Shown here in pieces: positions 37,901 to 60,954 of a stretch of DNA of 64,000 nucleotides. Each line of letters opens with the position of its first letter. Position 1 is the stretch's first letter. The translations under genes were made by a program, and so were the position numbers. The stretch covers positions 2,161,324-2,225,323 of the forward strand of contig OZ316891.1 in assembly GCA_973895155.1 (NCBI GenBank), written 5' to 3'. A model generated the notes under the pieces. It ran no database searches. It worked only from the letters and a program-made list of their open reading frames with translations, and was not told where the DNA came from. Source of the stretch: Marsupella aquatica. Lineage: Eukaryota > Plantae > Marchantiophyta.

Positions 37901-39253
37901 CAAGGTATCCTTAAAAAATGTTGTGGCCGCCGTTGCCATCTCCTGCCACCTAGACACCAGCCGTTCCTCCTGGTCAAAAAGCTGACGGATTTTGTTGCTC
38001 ATCGCCAAGCCTTTGAAGGTCCAAAAAAAAATCTTGGAGCATTTTTTTCCATCTGCAATCCACCGCGATTGCAAGACATAATCCATCCATTTTACTTGCT
38101 CTCCATCAAATTCGTGGATCAGTGACTCAACCTCTCTAACCATAGCCTGCGCCTGGCTGTCCTGAACGTGAGATTCGAGATACAGTTGTGCCCGGGCCAA
38201 ATTCTCCCGAAGGATTGATTCCCTCAGCCGTCTCTCAGCTGCTCTTCGTTTGCCCCAGCACCTGTCCATCTTCCTTGCGATCTTGATGCAGTGGGATAGA
38301 GTGTCGTCCGGTGTCAAACTCCTCTGTACACAACCCGCCACCTCCTCTGTCCACATATGGGTAATTTGATCCTGGTATGTTGGTTGGTGTTGGTGTCCTG
38401 TGTTCATCCTGTGTTGGGAAAAATGTTTGATGGCATTAACCGGGTACATTGTTGCACACACAGGAGCATGATCAGATAGGGGAATGTCGAGCAGAATAGT
38501 GGATGTGATGGTGAACTTGGAATTCAGCTCCCCTACCATGGAGTAAATCCGATCAATTCTCCTGAGCACTCTGTCTCCCCTGGGCCCCGTCTGAGTTCTT
38601 GGGTTGTGACGATGCCTCCTCTTGCTATCCCAGCTGAACCGCAGATGTCCAAGCTATTGCTGGAAAGTGTCTTCCCAGTGGAAACGCCTCTTCAAATGTC
38701 TCCAGGCCCTCATCTCAATTCCGGCTACAATACTGGTGGTCCCACCCCGTTGATCAGCTCTACCTTCAATCATATTAAAATCCCCCATGACAATCCAATT
38801 GCAAGAAGGGTCAAGCCGATTGAAAATCTCACGCCACAAATCAGTTCTCTCCCCAGGTGAATTTGGCCCATATATCCCCAAGAACCCAATCTTCCCAGTG
38901 ATGGTGTGGTTGATACACACCCAAACCGCCCATTTACTGGGTAGAACCCCTTCCCCTGTGATGAATGGCACCAATGAATTGTGAATTCCCAATGCAAGAC
39001 CACCCAATCCAGCCACGACCCTCTGATTCCGAATGGCGTGGACGCCATCCACAGCAGGAGCATAAACCCAATGCGCGGCAGGCCAGACCTCATGTTGAAT
39101 TTTTTTCACCTGGCCCTCCCTGAGTTTGTGCTCCTGAATGCACAGGATATCGGGTCTGCATTGGAGCCCCTCCAAATTGGATCAGGCTTGGAGGCGACAA
39201 CTCCGCGATGCCAGGCCCCTCAGGTTGTAAGTTGACAATGTTAGATGGGCCAT
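34948..39253 (-). pseudogene. LINE ORF2: AP endonuclease + reverse transcriptase + zinc finger, broken by stops and frameshifts
   Basis: Starts MAHLTLSTYNLRGL. EN motifs DILCIQEHK, MGDFNM, RRIDRIY, SDHAPV. RT motifs KCPGPDG, RPITLLN, KLDVSKAFDR, RQGCPLSPLLF, FYADD. C-terminal CTRC..HCIWTC and WNIWKDRS. Confidence 0.92.
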
Positions 39254-40913
39254 AGTCTAGTAGGTCACGTCGAATGGATGAAACCTTTGGGTAGATCTTA
39301 TCGAGGGATCCGTGGTTCTCAGCCAAATCCAAGTCCGCGCGAAATTCAGCTGCCAGTGGGTCAGTTTTGGTGTCAGATGATGCCTTCGGTCTGGGGCGCT
39401 TACGAATGGTTACATTCCCCCAGTCCAACAAGATGCTGATAGCGGTGGGAGTCACTGTAAGTGGTGCTTCAATTACTGTGGGATTTTCTTCCACTCCTGT
39501 CTCCACTAAGGGATTGATTGACACTTCTAAAGGAATGGAAAGGGCTGGTACCTCTACTGGTGGTTTCGGGGCCCACACTTTCTTCGGCGGCCTTCGGGGG
39601 TTGCTCTTTGGAAGTTTGGGCTTGGTGCTGCCAGATGAGGGTGTCGAAGTGTCGGTTGAGGCATAGGCCGGACCTGTGTTGCCCTTGCCAACCCCTCCCT
39701 ACCTGGAGTGGCTCACAGTGGTCCTAATTTGACCTCCTGATGGAGCAATAGACGTCGGTGCCCATTTGAATTCTTGCTCTGATTTAGATGTTAGTCTCTT
39801 CCGATGCTTTTTGTTGGTGTAGGTGTCGTCCCGGGTGTCGTGTGCCTTGGATGTAGCTCGGTGTGATGATGAGGTCGTCCTCAGCTCCCCTTGTGTGCCC
39901 TGCTCCTCCGACAAGTCCTTTGAACATTTTGCCAAATGTTGCAGATCCTCTACTTCCCTCTGTTGTTGCTCCTCGGCTCTCGCTTGCCAATAGTCAGCTT
40001 CTTCTTGTGCGCAACGAGCCTCAACTTGGTATTTATGGAAGACCTCGTGATCCAGCCGTTGTTTCTTCACGACGGATGTGAGGGCCGGGTAATGATCAGC
40101 TCCACCAGGGACGTCAGAGAAGAATGCTTGATTACGTAGTGCTTGGGGCCTCGGCTGTATGCAGCTAGACGCCAGATGTCTGTAGGAGAAGCAAAAACAG
40201 CAGCGTAGATTCCGACCAATATAATCAAAGTGAATGGTAGTGACTCTTTGACCACTCAGGCGGAAATTACCTTGCGCCGAGAACACCTTCAGCGTGGATT
40301 CCACAATTGCTGAGATGTGATGTTTTTTAGTGCCCGGTGCCAGCTTCGCGCGTACAAAAGTTCCCACAAGAGCAGTCACGAATCGAATGTATTCATAAGT
40401 GTCTGGGCTGCCAAGCTTGATGTATAGAGTGGCCAGATGTTTGAAATCCACTTGGTTGCAGGGATCAAAAAAGGGAGTGTAATCGTTGACCAACGCAAAA
40501 CGATCCAGTGCCTTGAGAGGTGATGTTTTCAGGAGATTCGCCTTGATGTCATCCCCTGAGTTAGTATCAAATTGCACCACAAATAGCGCATTTGGCAATT
40601 CATCATGTAATGCCAGTTTCGTGTCATTCTCCTGGTTGTAAGCTGAAATCCAGTCCCTAGCCTTGCAAGAATCGAATTCCGATTCGAAACCCAGCACCAC
40701 CTTGTTGCCAAAGATTCTTCGGCTACCGGATTGGAGGATCTCCTTTGGGATGTAGTGTATCACGTTGTTTTCCATTGTGGGATTCACATTCAGTCTTTCC
40801 TTGCCCTTCCGTAGCTGGTCACCGGAGGACGCAGAGATCCTGACATTGCGTGTGGAGGTTGTCGATTTGGCTGATGTTGAGCCCGTATTTCTGATTGAAC
40901 GCTCACTAGCCAT
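39090..40913 (-). pseudogene. LINE ORF1 (gag-like, zinc knuckle)
   Basis: ORF 39699..40913 has CX2CX4HX4C (CCFCFSYRHLASSC) and probably continues in 39090..39578 after a lesion; lies upstream of the EN domain. Confidence 0.75.
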
Positions 40914-41799
40914 GTGGTGTGGACGTGTAACGAAGGACCTAGTGAGACGTTTGGAGGCGATGGCGTGACTGGAGCAACAGAGTTGTATGTGTAGTGTGAG
41001 CTTGATGATACAACTCAGAATGAGACTTCCACGGGTGGTTCAAACACAGCAGCTTCAGTTGATCGAGAATTTTCAGATTAATATTCTGTCTCCTCCAACT
41101 GGGTGCCCAACATTGACAAAAAAGCCACCTGTGGGAAGCGGGTGCAAGCCATGATGGGTACAGCAGTCACAGAGTGTCGCCTTGGTCGAAGTGTGGTGGA
41201 AGGATTGATAGACGATCAGCGTCTCAGGTTGATGGTGACTGACAGAACCTGATGTTTGAGAAGCGAAAACGCAACATCCATTCAAATAGGGCCAAAAACC
41301 TTAGTAAAACATTGAGTTTGTAGTATGCGGGGTTTACTGAACGTTGCACTGCTAAGAGTCGCAGGGTGTGTAATTTTCCAGATTACCCTACTTACTCTCA
41401 AATAGCTATTAATATAAGACAAACTGCCTGGGTAATCCCAAAGGAGCGGTTGGGGACGCCCAGGACCTATTTTGGCACAAAAGGCCAGAGAATTTTGAAA
41501 AAAATATCGTGAACGGTCTGGCAGCCTGTCAGATGGGTAAAAGTCCCCCAGCATTCACTCTTTCTCCCCTGTAGAAAAAGCTATCGCAAGGGGACGTAAC
41601 AACTCTCACTCCCCCCTCTGTCCCCCTTCTGTCCTCCCTTCGTGAACTACGGAGCGCTACATCGCTCCCGCTCTGTCTCTGTCTAGCTATAGTAACTAGG
41701 ACTTGATCTTCGATTCTTCGGTACAATACAGTACGTATGTGCGGATGCTTTTGCTATTAGAGCTCATGGTGAGTGGCATTGAAGAGAACTAGATTTAAA

Positions 41800-42083
41800 C
41801 TCGGAGGTCTCACTATATGGGGACCTCCCCATCACCTGCAATGTTTTTGGGTCTCGGACCCCCTAAAATGTAAGAAAAAAAGTTTATTTTTTAACCCCTA
41901 TAAAGATGGAATTCCAAAAATTGGATTAAAAAGACCCTAATATTCTTATAAGTCTCAAAATTGAATAAAAAAGACCCTATTTTTCTTCTGCAAATTTTTT
42001 TAAGTCTTCTCTCAGAACCAATAAAATGACCCTATCCTTCGTTGCACGTGATATGCCATTTTTGTGGAAGTGAAACCCCTGAG
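41800..42083 (+). mobile_element. MITE, copy 1 (284 bp, 8-bp TSD)
   Basis: Imperfect TIRs CTCGGAGGTCTCACT...AGTGAAACCCCTGAG; exact TSD GATTTAAA at 41792-41799 and 42084-42091; homologous to 61963-62292. Confidence 0.85.
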
Positions 42084-43887
42084 GATTTAAAGTGAAATTG
42101 TGTCATGATGCACTATCAATCTCTTTCTCAAAACTATAGTCTATACCATGACACTATTTGCTGAGTTTGTTTCACCAAGTAAAGGGAAAGGAAAACTTTT
42201 AATGGGAGGGAATAGTCAAACTCTTGGATATGGAAATAGTTGTTGAGCAAATGACATCTCTTCAAAGACATCATGTACAATCATGATTGTGCAATATCCA
42301 ATGAAGAGATACGTCATTTAGCTCTCTAGTGGCTACTTCCACGAGAGAGCTTTCTTGAGCTTTGAGCTCATGCATTGCCCATGCAAATTAATCCATGGAC
42401 CCCATGTTATTTTAGAGGCAGTTATCTAGAAACTGAAGCCCAGATGGACCTCCAAGTTGAAAGAAAAATAAATTCAAAAATGGACAAGTCAATGCTTGAC
42501 ACTTGAAACAGTTGCCAAACTTACCAAGCCAACCATAATTAACATCAATCACAAAATCAGTTACAATGTGAACTACTGTTTAATTAATGTGTGGGTAGCT
42601 TAATTGCCCACTTCAGCAAAACGGTGCTCGACGGTTTCCTCCATGGTATTGAAGGGATGTCGGATGCACTCAAGTTGCATCAAAAGTAATCACTTTTCAA
42701 TTCCTACACGCAGAGAGACGAAGAGAGAGAAATCATCAGTGTCATCAAATCACTCACTTCACAAAATTGTTTGAAACAAAAAGTTTCATGGAACAAATCT
42801 CCAATTGTAAAATTTGGAATTGATCAAAAGCTAAACAAATTTAGAAACTGATGACCACTTTAGTACTTGATAGAATCTCTCAATGCCACACTCATTGGAA
42901 AGCTAGAGAAGATTGGAAACTCATAATCTCCTTGGAACTCAACTAAATCTATCTATGTTAATTTCATTAAAAAGCTAAAAAAATTCTAAAACTCATAATC
43001 TCCTTAGTACTCGATAAAATCTGTCAATTTTAGATTTATTCTCATGGAAGGGATCAACATTTCAAGGATTGTGCAACAAAGATTTCTATTCATGTTAGAG
43101 ATTATAAAATCCCGGGTACTATATATTTTTCAAATTACTTACTCAATTCTTATCGAACAGTAACAATCCTGAGCTCATTAGGACCGATCACCCTATTCAT
43201 TAAAACTGGAATTTCTCTAGTCCAGAAGTTGACCTTCAAATTTCTTATTTTACCCCCAAAAGTTCTATAACTTGTTCCCCAAAAACATACATTTTAGTGG
43301 CCAAATATACACTTTTTGAGGTCTAAAATTATAATTCTAATGCCCAAATTATTAATTAAATAATTCAGTTATCAATTATAAATATTTATTAATTAAAAGA
43401 TAATAAAGTGTTCTTATTATATATAATATAAACAATGAAAAAATAGAATAAGACAATATAATAAATTCAAATGACCCGTGATAACCAAGTTACACAAACA
43501 CGAAAGGTAAACCGGTAATGTATTATAAAAGTAAAAAACCTATTTTTATAGGGTCGAGACCACGTCTGCCCCAATGCAGGCTCTAGATGGTTTTGACCGG
43601 TTGTTGAATGTATATCAATTACTATGTAAAAATCTATGTCAAGATTATCTCGACCCAAATGTAGGGTCCACATAATTTTGACCCGTTGTTGAATCTATAT
43701 CTCTAGCTATTCCCTTTGTATAGGGTCAAGACCCAATAACCTTTTTCTGAGAACATATCTACAAGTAAAAGAGGATCAACAACATCTAGACTCAAATGGA
43801 TAGTACGCATAGCTTCACTTTTTTTTGAGTAAGAATATGTATACCTACAACTCACATTGTAACTGTTCAGTGTAGGGTCGAGATAAT

Positions 43888-44945
43888 CTAGACCCAAATC
43901 TCATGCTCCTCCACCCCGCAGAATTCATTTGAGCAAGTAAATCTAGACCCTGACGGGTCATATTTCATATCGCGATTGCAAAAATCGAGAGGCTTCCTAT
44001 TCCAGAACTTCATGGTGAGGTCCCTACACCTCAAGACTTCCAAAACAAATCCCCGATGATTGTCTCTATAGGGTCCTGTGTACTGATATCCAATTAACGT
44101 CTTTGCAAGGTCGTTGATCGCCTCCTCCGTCAATTCCTCCATTGGTGGTAATTGTTGCACTTCATTCTTGACATCCCAAGGAATTTCGTCCGCTGTGACA
44201 TCCAAGACTGTATGGATAACCGAATGAACCCATACCATACTACCCCACCGCTCCGTCAACAACGCATAAATGGCAGCTTGTTGATCTCTGTCCGCTAAAA
44301 TATTTATCATAGACCACTTTGGATGATTGATAAAAAGGTAGTGCTGAAGATTGAAGGCATGATACAATTTCCTGAGCAGAGGCCATAGTATTTCTGGAAA
44401 GAATGTATCATCCGTGGAGTGATGCAAAAATGAGGAAGGAAACAACCCACAATTCTCTGGATTTGCAAATGCCTTCATTGGAGTGTCATCAAGAAGGAGT
44501 GTATTAGTTTCGTTGTATAATCCACCATAACGTTTTCAAACCACCCTCAAATCCTTCAAATGAATATTTGCCTTCCCATCGGTAATGTCAGGCCTCTGGA
44601 TTCCAATATCGAATGTATCTTCTTGTGTGAGAATAAACTTGAATTGCTCTCGCTCTTCTTGACTAAAGATCAAATGAATCATTTCATCCGTCCTGGGTTT
44701 CCTTGCACAAGTCCAAATGGCAACATCAAATAACGAAAAAGCTACGATTAAGAACTCGTGAAGATGGGGTCGCTCAACATACATAAAGTTAAACCCTCCA
44801 CGTCTCCCCCAATGGACACCCTTGACACTTGTTGCACTACAGCGTGGTCCGGAACTTGGCGTTTTGACAGAATCCCAACACATTTTGTTGAGGACAAGAA
44901 TCAATAGCTTCCGTCTGATCGGACCGTGAAGTGGAGGCAAGGGTC
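43888..44945 (-). pseudogene. FCP1/NIF (HAD-fold CTD-phosphatase-like) domain; last exon of the cargo gene
   Basis: RKLLILVLN, ERPHLHEFL..AFSLFDVAIWT, HLKDLRVV*KRY, NTLLLDDTPMKAFANPEN. ORFs 44536..44940 and 43888..44478 share one frame with a single TGA. Phase-1 intron 44946-45050 (GTATGA...TTTGCAG) links it upstream. Confidence 0.8.
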
Positions 44946-46466
44946 CTGCAAAGAAGGAACTCCAATGTTAGAATTGTGGGAGATAAAACAAAGGAATGCT
45001 TGAGATGATCTCGAGCATCACAAGTGAATGAACAACAGTCAACGTCATACCTATTGTTGGTTGAAGGTCAGTAGTTGAAGAAATCTCAAGGCATCTTTGG
45101 AGATTATTGTCGACGCACTCCACAACTGGTAAGGGCCCGCCTATTTCTGTGAAGGTAGACATAATCATTTAGACGGTTGAATTTCAGGACTGTTCAAACT
45201 AACTTGGGTTTCAACCTCACGTGCTGAAAGACCCAAATTCATCTAGAAGGTTATCTCCTAGTTGGTTTTGGATGTCCAAATTTATCCCTCCGGGAAGGGT
45301 CTCAACAAGAGCTGGCTCAGACCAAACTGACAATAATTTGAACTTATCCTTCCTATACTTTCTAGGTCGAATAACCTTCTCAGACTGCTCTATAGAGACT
45401 TGTTGACCTTTTGACGGTCCATCAGTCCAAACATAATGAGTAGCACTTGCTTTGAGTGATTTGTAACCAGTTCTACCAATTTCAGTCCCCGGTTTCCTAA
45501 CAAAAGGGAGAATTACGGGGCTTCCAGTAGAAGAATCTGTGAAAACAAGCTTATTCTCTGAAGCGCAAAACATTTGGTCCAAGGGAGAGGACGATGCACC
45601 TGCCTCATCCTGAGGGGGAGTATGGCAGCCACTAGCTTTCTTAGTAGAGAAAATCTCATCCAATTGAGGAGGGCTTGGAATTGGTTGGCTAATTGCATCG
45701 TGCAAGGTGGATTCCTAGCCAACATCCAAGGTTGAAGACTGTTGTTCACGTTGTGCATCCCCAAGGTCACCCGATGAAGGAACACCTGGAACGTCGAGAT
45801 CATCTCGAGCATCATTTCCAAATTCAGGCAGTATTTCACCCTCCTCTTCCATGTAGCTTGTGATTTTTGGGCCCTCCGTTTTGCGATGCTCTAAATTCTC
45901 CGCAAATACTTCCTCATAAACACTGGCTTCCACTGGAGCTATGTCTAAGGCCGCCTCTTCTATTACAACGAGGGGACCGGCAGTAATTTCCTCAGATGGT
46001 AACGGCTCCTTGGGTGGCACATATAAAACCTGCTTGTTGTCATGAAGGAGCTGAGCAAAGGCTTCTGTGAATTCCATCTCTTGAGCTGTGTCCGAATACA
46101 CAAAACAATCCCGACCAAGAATGACACAAGCTTTCAATCTCTGTCCTCCAGAGAAGAAATCCAACACTGTATGACCTGGGCACGAGAAATAATCAACAAG
46201 ACGCTTTGTCATTCGCAAAGGCTTTGCTCTCGCATTTACAAAGCCACCACACCGACCGACCATCTCATAGGATGGGGCCATCTTCTTCAAAACTTTGACA
46301 TCAACAGTGGATTCATCAAGCTTCTCTTTCCCCTTTGATTGGTCTTTGTTGTTCCCAGTAGGGGCCTTCAAAGGCAAGACTGTGAAGTCTTTGTCCCACT
46401 TCTCACTGTAGTTCCAAAACGCATAAAAGTCATCAAAGAAAATTTGGGACCAGTCTGGTTCCTCTT

Positions 46467-49400
46467 TGTCGCACCCCTACCCTGGGCCTTAAATCCGGGT
46501 TAGTGTTGTGGTGCGACCTCGACCACCAGTAGGGGTGAGGGTTCGGGCAAGGAGGTGTGTAGTGACCTTCAATAGCCCTAAGTTGGGCTAAGCCGCTATA
46601 CTTACTGGTATAACACTCGCATAATTCGTACTTGACATAGGTATATTTATTTTCCACCGCTGGAATTTTCCCTCAGTTAGTGACGCGGACTAACTCCCGA
46701 CTTGGGGCTTTTCAAGCCATCGACGTGACAGGACCTTGTGACATGCAATGAGTGGAAATCCCTACCATTAGTCCGCACCCGGTACATCCCTTAAAATGGC
46801 GCCTTTGCCCGGACAAAGCATACACACAACACCAGTTACTCTCAGAAACATTAGGGGGAAAAGACTACATTTACTCAGCGAAGCATCAGTTTACATGGTT
46901 GACTCGACTTCAAAGGGGGTCAGCAGGCCCAACGGCAGTCGATGCCCAGTCTCTACGAGGCCCTGCCTCGCACTTGCCCAGCAAGCTCGACTCTGGCTCT
47001 CACTCCTTGGTACGCTCTGACCCTACTCAGGCCGGGACTCCCCGTGCCTCGCCTTTCTTCTGCTGAGATAACTAAGCCTTCTCCCCCTTCCCATCGTGGA
47101 AGGGGAAGCCTAAATACTACCATAGCGGAAGAGAACCGGAGGATACTACCTTCCGGGGCACTACCTACTGACTAACTAACTGCTGACTACTGGTCGCGCT
47201 GCACTGACCGGTTGACCGTCGACTACGAGTGTGCCAACCGGAATGGCAGCGGCCAAGCCTACTGACAAACTCTAGTCCGTTGATGGACTCCATCCTACGT
47301 TGGCTGATCCTAACTGATCGGCCCTAATTCTTCCTACTGCCGCTAATCGGCGCCTAATGACAGTCATTCTGTCGTTACGCCTAACTAAAAGATGCCGCTG
47401 ACTTAACCGCCTCGCGCGACGCCTGCTTCTACCCTTCGCTAACTACCCCTTACGTGTGTGCAGTGGTTGGACCAGGGCTGGTCCCCTTGTCGGGGCGAGA
47501 CCTCGAGCCGCCTTGATCAGAGGTGGGCCCAGGTTTTCCCCGCTGGAGGACGAGCAGGGTGACGCGGTCCTGCAAAGCCTTGTTGTCCCGTAATGCTTCC
47601 TCCGCCTCGTTTGCAGCTTCATCGGCTTCAGTCTGGAGCCGCGCCACCTCCAAGTTGAGCTGGTCGATGGCGTCGCGATGGACCTGGTCCTGCGCTAGCA
47701 ATTTATCTCGTTTGGCGGAGAGACCAACCACCTGCTGTGCTGCCTGCAGGAATTGTTTGTTGAGGTCGGTCAGGCTGGTAACCCGAGCCGAAGATTTTGA
47801 GCGTAATTGAAGCATGGTGTCGTCCAGCTTCTTGAGTTTGGCCTGCGCTCCGCTTAACTCCTGGGTTAGTCCGTCCCTCTGTTCGACAGTGCGGACTAAA
47901 TCCTCGCGGCGGGTCGTTGCCTCCTCCTCGAGGTGCTCTACCAGCATCTGGAGACGCCCGATCTCATTCCCCTTCGCCATGAGTTCTTCCTCCAAGCGGC
48001 TGACGATCCGTGGTTGGTGCTCTAACATGAAGAAGGCTGGCTGAAAGTACGCCGAGACTTGTTGTCCGATGTATGTCGCCAACTCCCCAGACATAGTCTG
48101 GCTAAACTTCTGGACCAGGTCGTAGACCATGGTCCCCGGGGCTACTTGGTAGTCCTCCATCCTCTCGGGTACCGGTGGTTCCTCGGCAGGGGCAATGAGC
48201 TCCTCCGTAGTCAGTGCTGGGGAGGGGAAGGTTTCTTCAGGTGGTGGAGGGATTGGGGGTGGTTGTACTGCAGGTAGCGGAGGCTCAACGGAAGGAGGCG
48301 GTGGAATTTCCACAGGGGGCGGTTGCGGAGTATTAGTCGGGGCTTCCGGCTTGGGGTTTGTCCGAGGGACAGTAGTCCGCGTAGTCGGGGTTGCCTCCTC
48401 TTGGGCGGGGGTGACATTACCCGGGGCTGAGGTGGCCGTATTCTTTCCTCTGGCCTCCCGCCGTGCCTTGTACCAGGCGAGGATAATGGCGATATGACTT
48501 CCCAAGTAAGTCTTCCCTCCAATAGCCATACCACCCTGAGCCCGCTTCAGCTCCCTCGAGAATCTTTGGTAGAAGAATTGGGCCCAGTTTCGTCGTTTGT
48601 ACTGTTCCACCTGCACGATCGTGCAGAGGGAAATCTCAGATCGTGGCTCAATCATGTGTAGGGTAGTCCGTATGAAGTTAAGCCGCTCCATACAGGTTAA
48701 GTTGGTGCACGCCCCCTGCTTGTATCCGTTGTCCGTCTTACCCTCGGGTTTGAAGTGCGCGGCGTATACTTCTTATCCCGAATTCGGATTTCCACCGGCG
48801 CCGGTCTGGTTGGTAGGCCAAAAATTTGCGTTAACCGATGCTCTATGAGTGATAAGGTCTGCCCCGAAACCTTGGTGGTCGACGCATCAGTGTCGAAATT
48901 GGAGATGAACTCACAAATCTCCTTCGGCCCGGTGGCGCACGGCCTCCATAGTAAGTGGGCGAACCGCTCCAACTGATGCTCCTTGAGATAGTCCACATGT
49001 TCGAGTTTCTTGATCGCGATCCAGACTACCTCGGGGACGCGGATTACCTGTAATAAGTTGGACTTCGGGTTATCCGGGGGCCGTCGGGTCTGGTTGGTCG
49101 GGGGGTTTGCTGGGGCAGGTGCAGGCGCGGCGTCGGTCCGTGTTGATTCGGGGGCCATCGTAGTCCTTGACCGCTTACGAGGACGCTGTTCGAGTTGCGG
49201 ACTAGCTCGCTCGGAACCCGAAGAACACTCCGCGTTGATTACTGGACGAACTTGGGACTGGTTTGGCGGTACTCCGGTGGTCATCGGTTGAGGCGCTGGG
49301 GTAGCCATATCCCAGTTGAAGGCGTTGGAGCTTTCCCCGAGGAACGTGAGATTACGCGCCGCTTCCCGTTGTTTGCTGATGTCTTCTTGGCGCTTTTCGG

Positions 49401-50303
49401 CTGCGATCTGCTGGTCTAGGTACCCCGGAATCTTGTCGAACTCCGCTTGAGTAAGCCGCTGGTTGCCCTTCAGCTTAAAGAACTTAGCTGGAACCTCAAG
49501 AATCGCCTCTGCTACCGATCTAAGCCCTTCCTCGCTGAGATATAGTTCGGTGATGTAGTCTCGCAACTCGTTATAGCTAGAATCCCTGGTGATGGCTGTC
49601 CTTTCGCAATTAACCAGTGCTACCTTGGTTACCAGCTTCGCGTACCTTCGTTCGTAAGCGGCTTTCTCGGGGCAAGAGTACCAGTAAGTCTCGGAGAACT
49701 TAGCACCTACCTCGCCAAACAAGGTCCAAAATCCCAAGGCTGTGAGGGTCATACTAACCTCGTAGTCCGGTTTGTTGCGTCCACTTTCCCACCTGGCTGG
49801 TCCTTTTTCGCGGAGGCCTCGCTCGTCCTGACTAAATCTGGCCACATTCCGCTCTTCTCCCTCGATAATTTCCTCGTAAAGGTCGACTGGATTCAATCAA
49901 AAAGGCGAGCGGATGGCAGCGTCCGTGAATTCCAAAAAGGTAAACATGAGTGAATGGCCCACAGTGCCATCGGCTCCTCTCTTATGGGGGTGCCAGGATG
50001 AGCCCGAGCGTGAGAAGGTCAGGCCGTTTGGTCATTGATAACGAGTTGAAGTCGGCGCCTCGGTCCAAGCGTGATTCTTCTAACTGATTTTTACTCCGCT
50101 GCCGCCACCATACCTCGGTCGTGCGTAATAATCCCTTTCCTGAACTCGTAATTATTCGGTTATCTTAACCTACTCCTAATCTAATCATAATGGCAACTTG
50201 GCGGCTATACGTGCTATTCTACGCTATGGCTACGGTCCTAATGACCGTATAAGTCCTAATCTTCGACCTGGGTTTGGTCAAGTGACACGTTACCCGTGTC
50301 ACA
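46467..50303. mobile_element. LTR-retrotransposon-derived insertion (solo-LTR-like, 3837 bp)
   Basis: Ends TGTCGCAC...GTGTCACA (TG..CA); exact 5-bp TSD CTCTT at 46462-46466 and 50304-50308; no second LTR copy and no gag/pol seen. Confidence 0.85.
47450..49896 (-). pseudogene. Retrotransposon extra ORF (~810 aa, one frameshift near 48770)
   Basis: ORFs 48697..49896 and 47450..48691. EICEFISNFD..TKVSGQTLSL..LTQIFGLP and NWAQFFYQRF resemble Gypsy accessory/plant-mobile-domain-type ORFs, followed by Pro-rich and coiled-coil regions. Confidence 0.65.
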
Positions 50304-51081
50304 CTCTTCACAACAAATTCCCCCAAAGATGATTGAGTCTCGGGCTCCAATGAGAAAATCTCCCTCCTCCTTGGGCAGCTGATCACGGTAGTAGCTCCCG
50401 TACTCCAGCTTCGTGTGGAATTTCTTCTCACGACGAATCTTTTCAAAGGCACTATGAATCTGGCCTATCAATGGGCCTTGACGGACAAAAAAGATTACTA
50501 AGAGCTCCGTCGAGTTCGCCATCTGCAAACAATACTCCAGCAAGACAAATTTTTTGGCATCTGTCCATTGCCGTTGTCGAAGACGACCAAAATCGACAAT
50601 GGAGAGTGGGCACGTCCTTTGCACCGAGTCAACAATCTCAGGCTTCATTGTCCTCATCAAATTATTGCTAAAAAATGTGCGATAAAGAGTATCCTCCATT
50701 GAAGGCAACCCGCCAAATACCTTGCAATATATCTGCTCAAGCCTAACAATGAGACTTTGCGGAAATGGGTCTTTTGGCTTATTTCTTTTTAGGAGGTTGG
50801 AAATCCAAACCTCTCTAGCAAGTTGTCTAAGTTTTGGCAACTCACCACGATCCATAAATGCAGGCAAAAATTGAGTTAGCTCAAACCAAGTGAGTGAATT
50901 GGCAAACCGATCCGGATACTTCAAAATGAAGTACTCCACAATTTTTGCCCTCAGCTTGGTCATGACTTTGAAAGTATGAGCCATATCACTCATTGATTGA
51001 ACATCAGATTTGTTGGCTGGGTCTTTCTTCAATAAAACCTTCTGTTGTTGAACGGTAGTAAAAACTTTCAGAATGTCATCA

Positions 51082-52463
51082 CTACTCGATCAGGTCTCCT
51101 TCAAAGCATCTAAACAATGCCGGCGTAATCATTTTTGTTGTCCGGGATTTCCCATTTATTTTTGAACCTAACTCCCCTAGACCATCCGGAAGAAGTCCCT
51201 TGACCCAATCGATGCACATTTGTCTCCAAGTTCGGAAGAGGTTCTCATCCGAAAACAACAACCAAAAAATATTCCTCAGATCGGATTTTCCAGTTGTTAT
51301 TTTGGCAAGGGCCATAAAATCCTGATCCAAACAATACAAAGAAAATCTGAGGCTCAAGACAATCTCGAGGTAGAATTAAGGAACTATGGTAAAATTTATG
51401 GGAGAATACATGAAGATAAATCAAATACAGAAACTTGACCTCGAGGCTCGAGACAATCTTGAGCTAGAAGTGGATTTGAGTTTGAATTTACCTGGAACTT
51501 TTGATGATCCGTTAGTCTATTGGACCCAATCACGGGTCTCTCCGGACGGCCACACTCGTCAAACTATCGACGGGCATGGACCATAGTATCAAGAAAACAG
51601 GACTCATACTCCATGGTCTTATTAACAATATTTGCCCTTTGTGAGTGTTGAGCAAGTATTGTTCTTGGAGTTCTGTCCGAAAGAATTTGTGACTTTTGAT
51701 ATTGCAGACTCTTTGCGACCTCCTTCAACTTTGCATCGCTCTTAGCCCAACCTATGATCCAAACAGCTGCCTTTGCCGAGTGTTGTCCACTGATTGCAAG
51801 GAACTGCACCTTCTTATTCTTAATACCCCACTCAAACTTCTTTCGATCCTCAGTAGTATTCTCATAATGGAGCAACTGCAAACTCTCTCTTGAATACGGA
51901 ATTAAATCCGCCACAGCTGGTACCATTCCAGGGTTTCTAACCATGGATTTTGTGACCTCCATGGCATGGTCTTTATTGAACATCCTATATACCAAAACTG
52001 CAGACGACGAATCTATACTAGTGATAGGAATGTCAAAAGTTTCATTCATGCCAAATGTGTAATACTCCTCAATCTCCTTAAGAACTTCGGCTCCTTCCTT
52101 AACGCTCTTTTCTCCCGGAGCATCTCCTGGAGTGCCATCATCATCAGTATGTGCATTCACACCCGAGGAAGATGCCGGAATGAGATCTACCTTGGGCGGC
52201 GCGAACTTTTTTTGAGGTGGAGCCTTCTTCGCTTTGCTTTCGGGTTTCTCATCTCTCTTCCTCTTTTGAGACACCTTTGCTTCCTTTTTGTCCAAACCGG
52301 ACGTCTTGTCTCCCGCAACTACAGATTTCAATTTACCTGTTTGTCTCCGATGAGACAGCACCCACTTTTTACAAGCATCCTCATCAAATTCTCTGGCTCC
52401 AAACACAAAATCAAGGGATATGGATTCAAACTCCCCCAATTTGGATTCCGACATTAGTCTCAA
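51082..52463 (-). pseudogene. ParB/Srx-like N-terminal domain of the cargo gene
   Basis: DIPITSID...YRMFNKDHAMEVTKSMVRNPG...FLAISGQHSAKA...AQHSQRAN follows the ParB pattern (ipi..I / R..f...l.el..Si...G / y.ii.G..R..A / ...EN). TAG at 51564-51566; phase-0 intron 51322-51491 (GTAAAT...GATCAG). Confidence 0.6.
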
Positions 52464-54005
52464 AACCTTCCACGTGAAAGAGTTGTGAATGCATCATCAC
52501 GATCAAACCCATACTTTTGACAATAAAGGAATCCAAAAATTATGTCCGCTCCAGATATAGGAGTATCTTCTAGCAAATTACTTGTAGTAAAACCCTCGGG
52601 GAAGAACCCCATTGATATCACGCTCAGTTGTTTCCTGGCTGCACGTTCAATGTTAAGATCGCAAGAGTAGTTTTTGGCGTGAAGTCTAATTAGAGCCCAC
52701 TTCCCTATCTTGTGGTTCTCCACCGTCAAAACCATGTCCTTACCGTTACTCGTCACAATAGAAACAACAGGCCCTAGAAGGCTGCACACTAGAGGATCGA
52801 CTGATGGAGACCTCGTCTTCACACAAATAATAGTTCCTTCCATGTCTTCAGTTTCAGCAAGCTCAATGGCCCAACAGAATCCAAATAAACCCTATCCAGG
52901 GCAGGAAACCTCAATTGCATGTTCATCTTCGACTACCAAATTAGGCGATCCCAATTTTGCACCTGGTATAGCCAAAATGTAGCAATTGTCAGAAATATGT
53001 ACTACAAAACCAAAAAACAAATAGGTGGTTCGAGATGATCTCGATCTTCCTTTTAAGTTTAATAGTCTGACATGTTCCAATGCCATTTCATCCGTGGAAT
53101 TTAAAAAGAGATTTCAAACCCAAGAAATCTAAAAAGATAACACAATAGTTAGGAAACACAATAGGCTCGAGATGATCTCGAGCCACCATCTGTTTAAAAG
53201 AAAAAGATAAGGGCTCGAGATAATCTCGATCCTCATATATATCAGTTGAGGTTTTATTCCATTGCATATCATGAACCAGTCAAATTTAACGAACAACATT
53301 TTCAAGAATGATCCAATGTCACCTATTCGACCACATTCAAAACCCTCTAACTCAGTGGTTTGTCATCTTCACAAACGAGTTGGAGGACTAAGAAAGTGGT
53401 CCAAAAGGCAAGCTTGGATCACAATGAAAAGGATATTAGTAATTCAAGTAGACGACATGGAGTCCTTCCAACTGGAAGAAATTGGCCAAGGGATACGAAT
53501 GACCATAATGGAAGATGGTGAGGGATATATTTGGCTTGAGACGATCTCGAGCCTAACATGTCAAACGAGTGATCCAAATATCATATTCAACAATGAACAT
53601 CATATTCAATCAATGATTAAAATTCACTTTCTCCATTGACTTCTAATACCCACAAACCCGTTCGGATGTCAATGATCAGAACGAGTTGGAGGGTACAGAA
53701 GTCCTTGGAGGAAGGAAATTTTAGATATTTTGGATATATGATGTTTCACTTTTGAAGGATAAGCTAAGGGTTTCCAACTTGAAAAAACTCACTAGGTCAC
53801 ATGCAGGAATTGCATATTGGCTCGAGACGATCTCGAGCCTCATGCCACTTACATCAAATGCAAAATCAATTGATAGATCACAACTTTTGAAGCAAAGTAT
53901 TGCAAAAAACATCAATAGGCTCGAGATGATCTCGAGCCTCAACTGCATCCAAGGAATCCAGAAACAAGTGGACCAATTGAAGCTCAAGACGATCTCGAGT
54001 TAAAC

Positions 54006-54150
54006 CTGAACAGAACAAAGATGATGAATTACGTTTAATGGTGCGATGGATCTGATGCGCTGAGTCTAGATGGGTCTGAAGCTCTTCGCCAACGGTTGCA
54101 AGATTGTACTCAACGAAGTCCTCCTTGGAGAAATCTACAACAGTCGACAT
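54006..54150 (-). pseudogene. Probable first coding exon of the cargo gene
   Basis: GCCATG start, MSTVVDFSKEDFVEYNLATVGEELQTHLDSAHQIHRTIKRNSSSLFCS, then a CAG|GTTTAA donor followed by motif-rich intron-like DNA. Confidence 0.45.
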
Positions 54151-54197
54151 GGCTGGTGAAGAGAGGAACGTACTACGGGCTGAGAACTTAAAAACAA

Positions 54198-54356
54198 ATC
54201 TCGAGCCTAAACAGAAAATCTCGACCCTATCGAAGCTTGAGCCTAAACACAAAATCTTGACCCTATAAAATCTCGAGGAAGAAACCTAATCTCGACCCTC
54301 TGCAATCTTGAGGCTAATACAAGGATCTCGAGGCAAGAGCGCGAAACAATCTAGAG
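54198..54356. repeat. Array of nine ATCTCGAS half-sites
   Basis: Starts at 54198, 54218, 54234, 54254, 54270, 54289, 54305, 54325 and 54349 (mostly alternating 20/16-bp spacing). Confidence 0.8.
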
Positions 54357-55518
54357 GCAAGGAGGCAAGGGATGCGAGGAGGCGAGGAGGCAAATGTGAA
54401 AATGGGGAATTCAAAACCCCTGAAGCCACTATAAGCCCCTCGGGGGTCGGCCTTGGCCGTGCCAAGTGTGCCAGGGCTCGTGCAGGCTCAGGCAGGCTGC
54501 AACCTGCTGGGTGCGTACAGTCATTATTACGGTCACACGTGTTATCATTATTGTTATCCGTACTTCAGCCCTGCCGCGAGTTTAGCCATGACACAAGTTC
54601 ATCCAAGCCGTCTTAATGGCCTTTTTGTCTGTCAGGGTTTTATATATTGCTTCTCTTTGGTCTCCAGCGGGTCATTCTTCTCATTTCGTTTCATTGCTCG
54701 CTCGTTTCTCCCTCTGCCTCTCTCTGCTCTCTCTCTCCCTCTCCCTCTCTTTGGCTCTAGATTTCTGCTCTGATCTCTTTCTGTTGTTCTTTTCAAGCCT
54801 GGTTGTGGACTCTACGTTTGTGTTTAGGATATTTTGAGAAATTCTCATTTTAAGCCCTGAAGGAGGTCTAAAATAATTGAGCTCCTATCTTTTAGAAAAC
54901 CAAACCTTTTCAGCTTATACTAGTGTCGGTCAAAATCCATTTGGAAGCCTTTTCCCTCTATTTGATGGCCTTTTAGAAGCTATTTCTCAGTGTCTGGAAG
55001 TAAACTAGGAGCCTACTTTCTTAATTGCACCAAATCATTCCTCTAGATCATCTAGAACCATTTATATGTTCTTATTTTGGGTGGCTTATTATTCATGATA
55101 GTTTCTTTGTCAAATACAATGTCCTTTTTGGCTTGAGATCATCTCGAGTCATAAGTTTGATCCACAAACTTATTCACTTTTGCCTTCTTTCTAATGGTGC
55201 ATTCAGTTTTCCTTCTTATAATTGAGTTTGTAGAGAGTCGGAGGTATAGAATCTGAATTCAGTATTTAGTGAGATTTCATATTTTACCTCGAGATCGTCT
55301 CGAGCTATTTAATACTTCTGAATTTTTACATATTGGAGTTTTTGGTCCCTCTTCTACCTCGAGATCGTCTCGAGGTAGAAGAGTTTCTTATTTTCTCTAT
55401 CACACAATTTTGTGGGATAAATTTCTACACTTGGGTTTTTTGGTTTGTTTTTGTAGTCACTTTACCTCGAGATCATCTCGAGGTAACTACATCCAACAGT
55501 TTGGACCACGTTTTCAAA

Positions 55519-58500
55519 ATGGGGATTTTCTTTTGAGGGGACAAGGTTTGCCTCGTAATCGATGGAGTGGAAGTTGCTTGCGGGACCGTCCTCAAGGTTG
55601 ACCCGGGTGACTCAGTGTGTAATGTTGATTTGGGAAGTAATCGTATAGGAGTTCTCATTGAGAAGTGCTATGAGGGATCATGGGAAATTCCTTACCCTTT
55701 GCCGCCGATCAGGACCCTGTTTGATGCTGTCGACTCCTGCATTATTTGGGATGCGTCTTTTGCATATTTGAAGTCACAGTCAACTCCAGCAACAACACAA
55801 ATGGATGCCTCTTGTTCTACAAAGGATACGGTTCCCGGTTTTGTACCAGACAAATCTTCGGTGGGAAGTTTTGGAGACTTGATTATATCTGGCGATGAAG
55901 TTGAGCTATGGATCGGCAATCAGATTGTGGCTCGTGGATTTGTGTTCAAGACGAATCCCGATGAGACCTGTCACAATGAAAGACTTGGCACTTCTAGGAT
56001 TAGTGTGAAAATATGTGAAGTTTTTCAAGGAAGGGAGAGGTTACCCTTTCCTCACAATGGAGCCGATACCGTTCAGGAAGCATTGGACACTTTTGTATTC
56101 TGGAATTTAAAGGATGTTACTCGGAGGAGTTCTTCCCAGGATATACTAAACGACCTGTCCACACGGGATGTTTTTTCAAATTATAATTTCAAGGATTATA
56201 GTTTGCGTTCTAATTGGATGACCGAGGAGGTGGAATTGTATGCTGAGGATAATTGGACCAAAGTGGGGGTTGGCATCATCACAGTTCCTTTCGAGTCAGG
56301 TGCAATTGATGATGATGTTCTTGGACCAGATCACGTTGGGGTTGCTGTCACACGCGTGATTGACCCTCTATTTTTCCCAAATATCTCCCCAGGAGTGCCT
56401 GGTCTTGTTAGGTGGGCCGTCCGTTCACTTCTGCTAATATCAAGGGGTATTTTTCTTCTGGATCTCATTGAAGAGGTTTCTCCAAAACCAATTATTGATG
56501 GTCGAGATCATCTAGAGGTAGATATGAAAGGTGACACTGAGTTTTCGAAGCGCCCGTATAATTTCATCAAGAGAACGAAGGTCAACCCAGATGAAAAAAG
56601 GAAGAAGCACTTGGAGTCTCGGGCGATACTGAAAATCACAGAGGAGGAAATCGACTCCATCCAAAGAGAAGGTCACTTGTTGTAAGTTGAAGTGTTGCCT
56701 CAGCATGCCGAGAGAAGACCTACAGGCGATAAGGAGGGAATACCATGGGATGTCAAGCGACAACAAAACCAGTCACATTCTCACTCTTTTTGGCTGTAGG
56801 GAGAAGGAAGTGGAGACAAAAAGATATTTCGTTGTAAGAAGTAGACTTGTTTGCAAGGGTGCTATTATTAAAATGCATGAATTCAGCACTGCCAAGTATT
56901 ATGATTACAAAAATCAATATGAAGCAGGTTGCACGGTTGGATTCCACGGAAACAAGGGTTCACACAAGACACGGGGAAGCACCTTGCATGCTCGTGCTTT
57001 GTTGGAGTCCATTCTAACCCAAAACGGAGAACCCATGCCACATCTTCCCTATGGAGGGTCTCACAGGACTGACACGGTTGAGTACAGACTTCCATCTTGT
57101 TTCACGAAGAAAGAGATTTTTGAGGAGGTATACTCAAAAATGGAATCAGATGGCTACGTGAAGGTGAGTGAAAAAACTATGTATAAACTCTGGAGTGAGT
57201 CCTTCATGAATTTTGACTTTCACAAGGGAAGTGCATTTGCAAAGTGTACACTTTGCACTGATTTCAAAGATCAGTTGATGCGGGAGAAGAGAAAGAAAGA
57301 GCGTTTAGAGATTGAGGAAAGAAGAGCTCGCCATCTTTGTGAGCAAATGTCTAGGAGATATGTTTACTATGCTCATAGGGTTCTTGCGAAGAAGGATCCT
57401 GAAAACTATCTTTGCATTATACATGACAAGATGGACCAGGCCAAGACATGGATCCCTAGGTTGGTCCCCACTCCTAAATCATTGTCTGGTAGTGGTCAAC
57501 CGCTCCCCATTGCGCTCACTGGGATGTTGACCCATGGAAGGGATCCCGGAGTGTATGCTCACTTCAGTTTCACTGGGCTTTGGCCGGGAGATGTAGACTT
57601 CACAGTGACATCATTGGCCAAGTGCCTTAGAGATCTGGAGGATTACAAGGGGGACAAATCTGGAGACCTCCTTGAAGGATTATATTGGGCTGCAACGAGG
57701 CCAATTTTTCAATCTCTTTTGGACTTTGAAGCGTTTCTCGCAGGTTACTTAGAACCCAAAAAAGTCTCAATTGCTAGATTTCAAGGAGCTGAAGATGACC
57801 AAGACGACTTTGGTGTTGATCCCAAGGCTACGTCTACCTCTTTCAAACCATTGCCAAGGCACCTGACCTTGCAAATGGATAATTCAGGGAAAGATAACAA
57901 AAACCAGTACGTGATGGCATTTTGCAATGAGCTTGTTAGTAGAGGGATTTTTGAAACAGTGCAGATGTCGTTTCTCATGGTTGGTCACACCCATGAGGAT
58001 GTCGATGCATTGTTTTTGAAAGTATCCAACCAAGTGAAGTACAAGGAGGTTTCTACCCTCTTGGGATTGATGGCTGAGGTTTGGGAGTGTGAAAGCATTC
58101 ATCCTGTCCCACGGTTGATCCAAGAGGTTGAAGAAATCATCCCATTCCTTAATCGTTACATTGAGTTTTTGAAGAAGAGTTGTAAGGATGAGACCTCTAC
58201 AACATATCGTGAGCGGTTTCCTTTGGTGAAATATTGGGAGATGGTGGTGCAAGTATTATCTGGGGAGCTTACAATTGAAGGGGAGGTAGAATACAATTAG
58301 CATTGACATATGAATTCTGGCCAAAAACCAACCACGGAACTGGTAACAAGGTTAATAATACAAGAACCTCTGAACCATTGGGGGAGCCTAGTAGTAGTAC
58401 ACAGAATCCACAAATGGTGGAGCTTCAGAATGAGTACCTGGAAGAGATGGAGGAAGAGTTAGGATGTTTCCGACTCACAATATAATCAAGCTGCAACATT

Positions 58501-58996
58501 TGTTGGCGCTCGACACGAGCGAGAACTTGCACGTTGGATTCCTCTGCAGGACATTCAAGAGGGTCACTTTGTATTTCTCCTTCCAGAGGATGAATGGGAA
58601 AAGAAGAATGGGAAAGAACGTTTCTGGTTGGTGAGAGCTTTGGGTGTTGTGGACCCAAACCATGAAGTTCCTTCAGGAGACTTGTAATGCAATGAGAATT
58701 CTCCTACTAGTACACGGTATGCTCCTATGTTCCAAGTGCAATGGTGGAGGCCTAAACATGGTAAGCATGATGCATCGGATCATGATGTGTGATATTCACG
58801 TTGCTTTCAGACCACTAAGACTTGGGAGGTGGATCCTGGGTTTGATAGTGCCACTGAACGTTGGAAATTTGCTAATTCTGCTATGTATGGATTCAAGTCA
58901 CGCTCAAGAGAAGAAAATATAATTGTTAGAGGTTTGACCATTCCCAAGAATGTTTTGAAAACACTCAAAACCTACATGGAAGGGATTGTTGAGTAA
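55519..58996 (+). pseudogene. DDD-type transposase (Sola1/DUF7869-like) with three N-terminal Tnp1/En/Spm-like domains
   Basis: ATG at 55519 (TGA at 55534); frameshifts near 56680 and 58300. Motifs AKCTLC, IHDKMDQAK, LQMDNSGKDNKNQY, FLMVGHTHEDVDALF. C-terminal FWLVRA...FQVQWWRP; stop at 58994-58996. Confidence 0.8.
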
Positions 58997-59022
58997 GTCA
59001 AATGTTTTTTAGTAGTCACTCT

Positions 59023-59118
59023 GTCAGAGTGAGGGAGTCTATGTCATTTAGTTTGGAATTAGACATGTCAGAGTGAGGGAGTCTAATTATGTCAATTAGT
59101 TTGGAATCAGACATGTCT
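59023..59118. repeat. ~43-bp tandem duplication
   Basis: TGTCAGAGTGAGGGAGTCTA..TGTCAwTTAGTTTGGAATyAGACA occurs twice. Confidence 0.85.
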
Positions 59119-60954
59119 TTAGTACTTACTGTTGGTTAGTACTAAGTAGTATATCTATTTAAGTAACTAATTATTATAATATTTTGGGATACTAGTTTGT
59201 ATAGGTGGAGGTAATTGGACTTGGATGCCTTTATAATATCAATACAGACTATATATTACATGAAGTCTTAATATCCATGATAGGATGTGAGTGCCTCTTA
59301 GTACTGTCTAGTAGTAAACCTTAGTTTCAACTCAAGTTGCTTAGAATGTAACAAATTACTTGTCTGAATGGATAGTAAGCCAGGTATCATTCAAATTTAA
59401 TATATTAAATGCTCTCAATTAGTAACTAAGTAGAAGGTTAATTTAGCTAGCTAAGGGTAGAGATCATATTATTTGAAGCTTTACTAGTTATATGGGTAGA
59501 GATCATATTGAAGCTTTACTAGACACTTATATTCTATTAGTCAAATTGAATCAATGTAAGTAAGTTCTACTTCTTATCCAATATATTTTACATTATTATC
59601 ACCCAAATGTTTTTCTTTAGAATCCAAATTAATATTTAAATTTCTCCTATGTTCAATCTTGATCCCCCAAATGTACAACTCCCACTGCCCAAATGTACAA
59701 CTCCCACTGCCCAAATATATATTTTTTGGTGCCTAAATGTCCAAAGATCAAAGAATTTTCCAATTTTAATGAATAGACTGATACCGTCTCTTCGAGATCT
59801 TTCCAATGCCATATTATATGTGAGTTTTCATTATGATTTGACTCAACAATGTCAAATCAAAAATTGCTGCCAGGAAATTTATGTTTTGAATAAAATCAAA
59901 ATGTAAATTAAATTGTACGTTACTAGGAGCAGTTTTACCTCAATCTTTTTGTCTTTTGATTTGCATGTCAGTTTTTTTACATTCTTTTTTACGGCACGAC
60001 GTCCCAATTTTTATAGCAAAGTTTCCACAAACACGAATGCAGAAGTTAATTTTATCCAAAAAAGAGTCTCTTCCTGTTTGCAGCGTGCCATGATCATGTG
60101 ACATGCTGTGGACCCTGGAATTTTGGAAATGACATGTTAGGCATTACCACGTGTACTGTTCACATGTTCCAATGAAGAATTCATGTGTGAATCAATAATA
60201 TTATGTTTCATATTTATTATTGCAAGCACTATATGATCTTCAGTTGGGGGATGACTACCAAGACCTGTAGGAGCCAAGCTCTATCCAAAATAGGTGTTAT
60301 CAACGGAAATGAGATACAATTGTAAAAATCAAACTATGAGGTGAAAGAAAACATTATAACCTCAAATTTATAGAATATTGTGTCATAAATATATTCATTC
60401 TTTAAAGTAAATCAGGTCATCAATATTAAAATAGAGAATATTCCTAGAGTAATCTATTTGTAAACTAGAATTATTTATATTATTTAGTCTAATATCACAT
60501 GTGGCACCTCAAAATATAAACTAACTTAGCCTCCAAAAGATGTCATCCGTTTTGTCTAACATGCCCTGCTTTTGAACAACCCTTCTTACTTATAAAACTA
60601 CATTTGTATAATTTTGTGGTTGTTTCAATTAATTAAATTACAAATATTAGTCACAAATTGATAAATAGTACTTTTCCTTGAAATGATAAATAGTACTTTT
60701 GAAATGCATGCATGTGTTTTGGGGTTTCATTAAGGTGTGCTAGACATCTACCCTAGGGTCTAGAGCGGGTCTCGAGTTATTATGTAACCATAGTTAGTCT
60801 AGTCGTAGTTAGGTACTTGTCGATCAAGTTAGTTTGGATAGTTATGTTACTTTGTATATGGACAAGTCTGCACGTAGGAGTTAAAGAGCTTTGTATATGG
60901 ACAAGTAGGAGAGCTTGTGATCCAGAGACTTGGTATGATCTACACATCCTCGTA

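Follow-up and report, generated by a model that had tools for sequence, protein, structure and literature searches.

An apparent decayed accessory gene and a candidate target palindrome in a DNA transposon of the liverwort Marsupella aquatica

The transposon and its cargo gene

The window analysed here is a 64,000-nucleotide stretch of repeat-rich eukaryotic DNA from the liverwort Marsupella aquatica (assembly GCA_973895155.1, contig OZ316891.1, positions 2,161,324 to 2,225,323), and all positions below are counted from its first letter. It holds a DNA transposon with a decayed transposase-like gene, a cargo gene on the minus strand made of several open reading frame (ORF) fragments, and a dispersed palindrome (Table 1). 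The cargo product is predicted to combine a ParB/sulfiredoxin (Srx) fold, a beta-class DNA methylase fold and, probably, a phosphatase-like domain of the haloacid dehalogenase (HAD) type. The locus is a real, decayed copy of an apparently undescribed transposon accessory gene together with a candidate target motif.

Table 1 Coordinates of the transposon, its genes and its repeated motif, with predicted exons and introns of the cargo gene.
Feature	Position	Strand	Remarks
Whole DNA transposon	43187..59782	none	16,596 bp; 12,754 bp without the later insertion; matched ends and joined flanks
Left terminal inverted repeat	43187..43211	+	25 bp; 22/25 positions alike with the right end
Right terminal inverted repeat	59758..59782	-	25 bp; pairs with the left end, 22/25
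Left target-site duplication	43183..43186	+	ACCG, 4 bp
Right target-site duplication	59783..59786	+	ACCG, 4 bp
DUF7869 transposase-like gene, decayed	55537..58996	+	Frameshifts near 56673 and 58289, later stops; Pfam DUF7869 E 8e-38
Cargo exon 1	54033..54150	-	ATG at 54150; 118 nt, phase 1; predicted
Intron 1	52963..54032	-	GT-AG, 1070 nt; 7 palindromes
Cargo exon 2	51492..52962	-	N-terminal domain without a family, basic linker, ParB/Srx-fold domain; intact single-ORF homologues P0001-P0006
ParB/Srx-fold domain	51567..52088	-	Conserved YR and ISGQHS motifs; from model, fold searches and alignment
Intron 2	51322..51491	-	GT-AG, 170 nt; 2 palindromes; the annotated Calypogeia protein P0015 aligns across the junction
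Cargo exon 3, first part	50304..51321	-	Helical region (frameshift near 51085), N-terminal half of beta-class methylase fold, DFGR at 50594
Later insertion	46467..50303	-	3,837 bp; TGT...ACA ends, 5-bp AAGAG duplication, two overlapping ORFs, no palindromes
Cargo exon 3, second part	45225..46466	-	C-terminal half of methylase fold (DFFSGG at 46161), acidic linker, conserved domain from 45609
Likely intron 3	45147..45224	-	GC-AG, 78 nt, phase 1; predicted; takes out in-frame stops without a frameshift
Likely exon 4	45051..45146	-	96 nt, phase 1-1; predicted
Intron 4	44946..45050	-	GT-AG, 105 nt; 1 palindrome
Exon 5	43888..44945	-	UBLCP1/HAD-IIID-like domain, VLN for DxD, stop at 44538, then C-terminal part without an assigned family
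Palindrome CTCGAGAT-N-ATCTCGAG	43638..56517	none	17 bp; 19 dispersed copies at no more than 3 mismatches: 43638, 43877, 44999, 45793, 51353, 51447, 53029, 53166, 53214, 53535, 53821, 53920, 53983, 55041, 55132, 55288, 55358, 55466, 56501

The left flank of the transposon is fused to its right flank (43151 to 59785) in contigs from two of four sequencing runs, as expected of an empty site. All 30 bins are covered by thousands of contigs at 80-100% identity in all four runs, and this coverage points to a multi-copy family; the runs belong to two studies, one or more of them may derive from the source sample, and they yield no copy number. Contig depth climbs over both flanks (42000-43186 and 59783-60500), the joined form being that seen in two of the four runs, and the transposon appears to have landed inside another repeat. 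An alternative end at GGACCG, a Sola1-like start, was rejected, as it has no flanking duplication and the joined flanks agree with ACCG.

The DUF7869 transposase-like gene is oriented away from the cargo gene, and its indels are seen in other copies among the sequencing-run contigs. We presume that the motifs of this transposase resemble those of the Sola transposases. The terminal inverted repeats (22/25) and the 4-bp duplication agree with Sola1, but the single observed site, ACCG, differs from the Sola1 target preference AWWT given in PMC3845634 (here and below, papers cited by PMC number or DOI are represented by the parts of their text accessible to us). A 382-residue frame (55537-56685, plus strand) lies 5' of the transposase core without a Pfam match; to the eye it seems to contain three similar beta-rich units, but self-BLAST recovered none of them. 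An Rfam scan of 43000-60000 returned no matches.

The minus-strand cargo fragments are collinear across 43888..54150, as a preliminary description made from the sequence had claimed and as the ORF positions confirm. A repaired model of the gene, made by script with X at each break (1,666 positions), was compared with 92 stored proteins, a set mostly fetched by exon-2 queries and biased to exon 2. Of the 92 proteins, 4 bridge the stop at 52894 in a single alignment, 16 do so for the frameshift near 52480, 50 for the stop at 51566, 8 for the junction at intron 2 (the annotated proteins P0015, P0057, P0065 and P0077 being among these), 4 for the frameshift near 51085 and 2 for the insertion site at 46467-50303. 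None of the 92 proteins in this exon-2-biased set bridges, in one alignment, intron 1 with its exon 1 junction, the stop at 45717, intron 3, intron 4 or the stop at 44538. The first part of exon 3 is supported by the P0015 and P0087 alignments, and P0087, one ORF of 539 residues, matches on both sides of 45717 with 42% and 47% identity.

The three single stops named in the preliminary description, ending at 51564 (TAG), 45715 (TAG) and 44536 (TGA), are all present. Close homologues have Gln at the first of them (51566-51564), P0087 matches on both sides of the second, which sits in the acidic linker of exon 3, and UBLCP1 aligns across the third with Trp. That list had overlooked a fourth stop, a TAG at 52894-52892, which is a sense codon in contigs of all four runs and which, with the stop at 51566 and the frameshift near 52480, makes up the breaks of exon 2. 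The frameshifts placed at about 52470 and about 51085 are borne out by the bridging alignments. A third one, placed at about 45170-45235, is unneeded and was replaced by a GC-AG intron, because both sides lie in one frame, a contig over 45112-45606 shows 8 substitutions and zero gaps, and the P0087 match ends at the intron 3 donor. GT-AG splicing was also rightly recognized, but not the number of introns: instead of two we predict three GT-AG introns (54032-52963, 51491-51322 and 45050-44946) plus the likely GC-AG intron (45224-45147). Exon phases agree at all four junctions, and the cargo gene is likely spliced. The exon 4 peptide has no match among 104 stored proteins.

Exon 3 is interrupted by a later insertion, whose empty site is present in all four sequencing runs. 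Its ORFs run from 49896 to 48697 (399 aa) and from 48772 to 47450 (440 aa); the second of them contains a coiled coil and a proline-rich stretch. The insertion has about 55% GC and a CpG observed/expected ratio of 0.9, versus 0.58 in the host element, and its contig depth is far above that of the host element. The TG...CA ends and the 5-bp duplication are those of a long terminal repeat (LTR) retrotransposon; within the insertion there is no internal repeat of at least 14 bp, so there is no LTR pair, and neither ORF matches a retroelement Pfam family. A removable LTR insert had been proposed here. It is removable, to judge by the duplication and the empty site, but it contains no LTR pair and a full LTR element was rejected; the insertion could represent a solo LTR of unusual length or some other kind of element.

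Domains of the predicted cargo protein

The first domain was modelled with AlphaFold from the piece 52088-51567 and an alignment of 50 rows (A3: the window piece plus 49 homologues, namely P0001-P0006 and further HMMER matches chosen by coverage), at a predicted local distance difference test score (pLDDT) of 91.6. The first 12 Foldseek matches of this model were all Noc, ParB, KorB or sulfiredoxin (Noc E 9e-4; ParB probability 1.0). In the VIA fold search all eight matches with Z of at least 5 were of the ParB/Srx type: PadC, KorB, a serine kinase, Pnob8 ParB-N, SbnI, Srx and Atu1540, which we take to be one superfamily. PadC and KorB led with Z 8.1 (KorB at a root-mean-square deviation (rmsd) of 2.8 over 94 aligned residues), and unrelated rows had Z no higher than 4.4. 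The modelling supports a ParB/Srx fold for the first domain, which we accept despite the modest Z because Foldseek and VIA concur.

The motif GQHS, noted earlier as standing in place of GxxR, is present at 51788 and occurs in 45 of the 50 alignment rows, with the His invariant (50/50) and an upstream Arg in 43. Decay was rejected as the cause of this divergence, since intact homologues share it; GQHS is a family trait and a conserved site of its own kind. HMMER returned 78 clusters, among which P0056 and P0079 are chance matches to Trichinella DNase II and were left out of the alignments. At 50% identity the protein family comprises about 76 clusters; some of its members are liverwort proteins whose annotation says no more than hypothetical, and two liverworts, Calypogeia fissa and Riccia sorocarpa, are the source of all named cargo homologues. 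A profile of the domain run against PDB sequences gave solely low-complexity matches outside it. Locus scans for relatives confirmed none among 172 pattern matches in metagenome contigs (scanned with the exon-2 alignment), 33 in prokaryote genomes and 55 in viral contigs. The first Atlas look-alike of the domain, at a score of 0.94, is a cluster in which 31% of the members carry DUF3723, a likeness of 163 of 256 shared features with no alignment and hence a lead only. Ahead of the ParB fold, a conserved N-terminal domain (52960-52330, minus strand) is matched by 16 of the 104 stored proteins and belongs to no Pfam family.

For the second domain, the Pfam profile N6_N4_Mtase stays below its cut-off of 26.7 bits, both with the window (21.2 bits, E 3e-4) and with the homologue P0087 (24.7 bits, E 2.6e-5). 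A model of P0087 residues 1-273, built from 5 rows, matched M.RsrI in Foldseek (E 1e-6), and its top 11 VIA matches were N6/N4 DNA methylases with Z 12.5-15.1, the best being M.MboIIA (Z 15.1, rmsd 3.7, 186 aligned). The amino-methyltransferase claimed earlier stands as a fold, with its profile match below the cut-off, and the model supports a beta-class N6/N4 methyltransferase fold with a permuted Rossmann order. DPPY/SPPY is absent from all four rows that cover the motif IV strand, which read DFGR, DFGR, DFAR and DL in a register taken from the strand position. The DFGR at 50594 had been pointed out in place of DPPY; it is carried by intact homologues too, and decay was again rejected. The DFFSGG loop (46161) gives an S-adenosylmethionine (SAM)-binding loop one residue shorter than that of M.RsrI. 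A scan of metagenome contigs with P0087 gave 22 pattern matches and no confirmed relative. In the Atlas, unnamed clusters of 81-109 members (score 0.94, 193-194 shared features) outrank the named N6_N4 methylase clusters for P0087 residues 15-270, a hint that methylase folds of this kind form a larger family. After the acidic linker, a conserved domain of about 125 residues (45609-45225, minus strand) shows 47% identity in P0087 and has no meaningful match in Pfam or NCBIfam.

The annotated Riccia proteins P0065 and P0080 contain the ParB-like and methylase parts in one chain, and the overlapping homologues P0015 and P0087 also support the linkage. The two parts very probably belong to one protein.

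Exon 5 matches Pfam NIF (E 6.7e-7, 29.6 bits against a cut-off of 21.8) and PDB 3shq, UBLCP1 (E 3.7e-9), with motifs II-IV aligned. In NCBIfam it gives E 1.8e-12 with the HAD-IIID model TIGR02245 versus E 0.019 with the FCP1 model TIGR02250, neither of which reaches its own cut-off. Sequence comparison thus places the third domain among the NIF-type HAD domains, with UBLCP1/HAD-IIID as its closest match. Of the FCP1 phosphatase in the preliminary description, the NIF-type HAD domain stands and the FCP1 subfamily is rejected. The accompanying suggestion of action on the RNA polymerase II carboxy-terminal domain is unsupported, exon 5 being only weakly FCP1-like; the link is weak because PMC5451543 (accessible part) presents UBLCP1 as a phosphatase of the proteasome. 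The motif I pattern DxDxT is replaced by VLNKM in this copy, and the Val of the VLN at 44895, encoded by GTC, differs by a single base from an Asp codon, as had been observed. What joins this domain to the rest is solely the matching phase of the splice sites, and we consider that the HAD domain is probably part of the same protein as the ParB-methylase part.

The palindrome and the possible role of the cargo

The feature that bears most on mechanism, the palindrome, had been overlooked in the preliminary description. At no more than two mismatches the 12,754-bp element contains 16 copies of it, and it is absent from the insertion and from the 47,416 bp outside the element; in 40 of 40 first-order simulations no copy arose. 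At no more than three mismatches, 17 of the 19 copies fall outside coding sequence (p 7e-7), with ten in the cargo introns, five between the two genes and two past or on the last stop, and one lies inside the transposase ORF. The palindrome is a real element-specific motif. Its copies may have spread by local duplication.

We tentatively propose, as a possibility somewhat short of probable, that the cargo is an accessory gene whose product would bind the palindromes of its own element and keep that element active against host silencing. As a dimer, the cargo protein would read the two-fold site with its two CpGs. The methylase fold, lacking DPPY/SPPY, might serve as a sequence reader or a base-flipping shield and not as a standard enzyme, while the ParB fold, which has a GQHS site of its own, might be a nucleotide-dependent switch that controls loading or spreading. 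The HAD domain without the motif I Asp could be a docking module on host proteins. Cognate transposon copies would then stay active against silencing.

Several observations weigh against this proposal and the architecture behind it. The ParB Z of 8.1 is close to the caution line of the VIA tool. ParB CTPase (cytidine triphosphatase) clamps carry the GxxR motif, and its arginine is found in none of the 50 rows. The ParB-like domain of the preliminary description was upheld by model and fold searches but not by profile recovery: neither the window piece nor any of 61 homologues matches a ParB family in Pfam, save for a single weak DndB match (E 0.04). The methylase model is that of a homologue, from few rows and at a low-confidence pLDDT of 58. 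For the three-domain fusion gene claimed earlier, the ParB-methylase linkage is established in P0065 and P0080 and the phosphatase fusion is likely, but no linking protein was found: none joins the HAD exon to the rest among 2,282 longer candidates, in a search that its tool notes as weak, and none of the 104 stored proteins is a HAD-linked homologue. Riccia P0065 (820 aa) ends past the acidic linker without a HAD domain, and intron 3 requires a GC donor. Finally, the palindrome consensus was derived after the fact from the same element. Because of this, and because local duplication is possible, the palindrome counts show an element-specific motif and not a reader protein.

It is rather unlikely, in our view, that the palindromes are instead internal binding sites of the transposase, as synapsis enhancers or regulatory sites, and that the cargo rides along independently and serves a different role. 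Binding to repeated motifs inside the element is common among transposases. Five palindromes fall in the stretch from the cargo start to the transposase ORF, which itself holds one, and the accessible part of one preprint (10.64898/2026.08.24.746577) has a transposase alone activating cognate copies. However, the cargo introns hold ten palindromes, no copy comes closer than 400 bp to a terminal repeat, and the palindrome is dissimilar to the terminal repeat.

Another alternative concerns the architecture only. The ParB-methylase gene might stop near 45217, where there is an in-frame TGA (45219-45217), and the UBLCP1-like piece might be a separately captured host fragment that is not co-translated. 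P0087 and P0090 both terminate 7 residues beyond the same point, which fits this, as do the lack of a fused protein among those searched and the GC donor. But exon-only ORF calls of this family usually run a few residues into an intron, e.g., P0001 and P0002 at intron 2, and the distance of about 50 bp from the stop to the next ATG would be too short for a terminator and a promoter. The two downstream introns hold phase 1 with good acceptors, and the palindromes carry on through intron 4 and beyond the last stop. We regard such a split as unlikely.

Doubtful, finally, is a restriction-modification-like addiction or drive module, in which an active atypical N6-adenine/N4-cytosine methylase would mark the CTCGAG palindromes as self and a ParB-fold nuclease or nucleoside triphosphatase (NTPase) would harm unmarked DNA: the beta-class fold keeps the motif IV Asp and an FxxG-like loop, and accessible text reports that ParB-superfamily proteins can be nucleases or NTPases (PMC10853773), that Marchantia employs a bacterial-type N4-methylcytosine (4mC) methylase (10.1101/2021.02.12.428880) and that retrotransposons carry active C5 methylases (PMC5890265), but PPY is gone in all four rows, the SAM loop is short, transposon-borne adenine methylase domains of DIRS1 are regarded as inactive in the part of PMC4738411 accessible to us, and decayed copies are tolerated by the host.

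Returning to the proposed accessory role, a broader conjecture may be drawn from it, which we hold to be improbable. Land-plant DNA transposons would carry a ParB/parS-like system in which a spliced protein with ParB, methylase and phosphatase folds loads on the 17-bp palindromes of its own element, spreads from them in the manner of a clamp gated by nucleotide, and shields the element's DNA or marks it anew, with the DUF3723 of Starships as a distant version. Transposon-coded, sequence-specific anti-silencing is known mainly from VANDAL/VANC, and this element would add a second candidate, unrelated to the first and assembled from bacterial folds, with a single 17-bp palindrome as the candidate target. 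If true, a ParB/parS-like logic would operate on eukaryotic chromatin, and the presence of DUF3723 in the Starships of fungi might find an explanation. No paper describing the cargo architecture was found by title or the start of the abstract, in a search that excluded Repbase and most subscription journals.

The rest of the window contains further repeats. A decayed element resembling a long interspersed nuclear element (LINE) occupies 35454-41039 on the minus strand, with an ORF1-like frame at 39699-41039, an endonuclease domain matching Pfam Exo_endo_phos (E 9.3e-8) and reverse-transcriptase-like frames with YADD. A 1-kb element at 2490-3467 resembles a miniature inverted-repeat transposable element (MITE), with 247-bp inverted arms that are 91% complementary and nested inner arms. 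The repeat at 20534-20952 is rich in Gly codons with Lys-Lys-Glu codons interspersed, and likely belongs to a glycine-rich protein gene. Two neighbouring minus-strand frames at 23937-25430, with one stop between them, are putatively of F-box/kelch type, a look noted by eye alone.

Comparison with known systems

The nearest functional parallel may be VANDAL/VANC of Arabidopsis. There, too, a DNA transposon has an accessory protein besides its transposase, with element-specific motifs in introns, intergenic parts and terminal non-coding parts; VANC21 binds such parts of VANDAL21 according to the accessible text of PMC5735166. The present element differs in its transposase family and in its unrelated protein folds, and its motif is a dispersed, perfect 17-bp palindrome, unlike the VANC targets, which are often tandem repeats. 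We infer that the cargo would work like a VANC-type accessory system, yet is not a member of the VANC family.

By defining motifs, the predicted cargo protein also lies outside the ParB CTPase, active beta-methylase and FCP1 families. It shares with ParB, Noc and KorB and their parS sites the ParB/Srx fold and several palindromic sites in cis, but it has GQHS for GxxR, its element has no ParA partner, and it is eukaryotic, intron-containing and fused to a methylase fold. With the beta-class methylases (M.RsrI, M.MboIIA, CcrM, M.PvuII, rotifer N4CMT and Marchantia DN4MT1) it shares the fold and the permuted order, the motif IV strand preceding the FxGxG loop. It differs from them in DFGR/DFAR/DL for DPPY/SPPY, in the shorter SAM loop, and in being transposon-borne and fused. 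In the accessible texts, MpDN4MT1 has TSPPY (10.1101/2021.02.12.428880) and rotifers have a bacterial-type 4mC methylase (PMC8885841).

An association of ParB with methylases has been described before. The accessible part of PMC4738411 covers phage ParB-terminase loci, a helix-turn-helix of the ParB type joined to a group-2 methylase in chytrids and chlorophytes, and adenine methylase domains of DIRS1 that are carried by transposons and likely inactive. The present case resembles these in the ParB-methylase association and in having a methylase domain on a transposon, but it would join a ParB catalytic fold to a beta-class methylase in a land-plant DNA transposon; the supplement of that paper may list more architectures. 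UBLCP1/HAD-IIID (PDB 3shq) is the best sequence match of exon 5, as described above; unlike UBLCP1, the cargo shows no ubiquitin-like domain, has VLN at motif I in this copy and has an extra C-terminal region. DUF3723, the top Atlas look-alike, is likewise an accessory gene of a eukaryotic mobile element, conserved in fungal Starships (10.1101/2021.12.13.472469, accessible part), but Starships are fungal, tyrosine-recombinase elements, unlike the transposon that carries the cargo gene.

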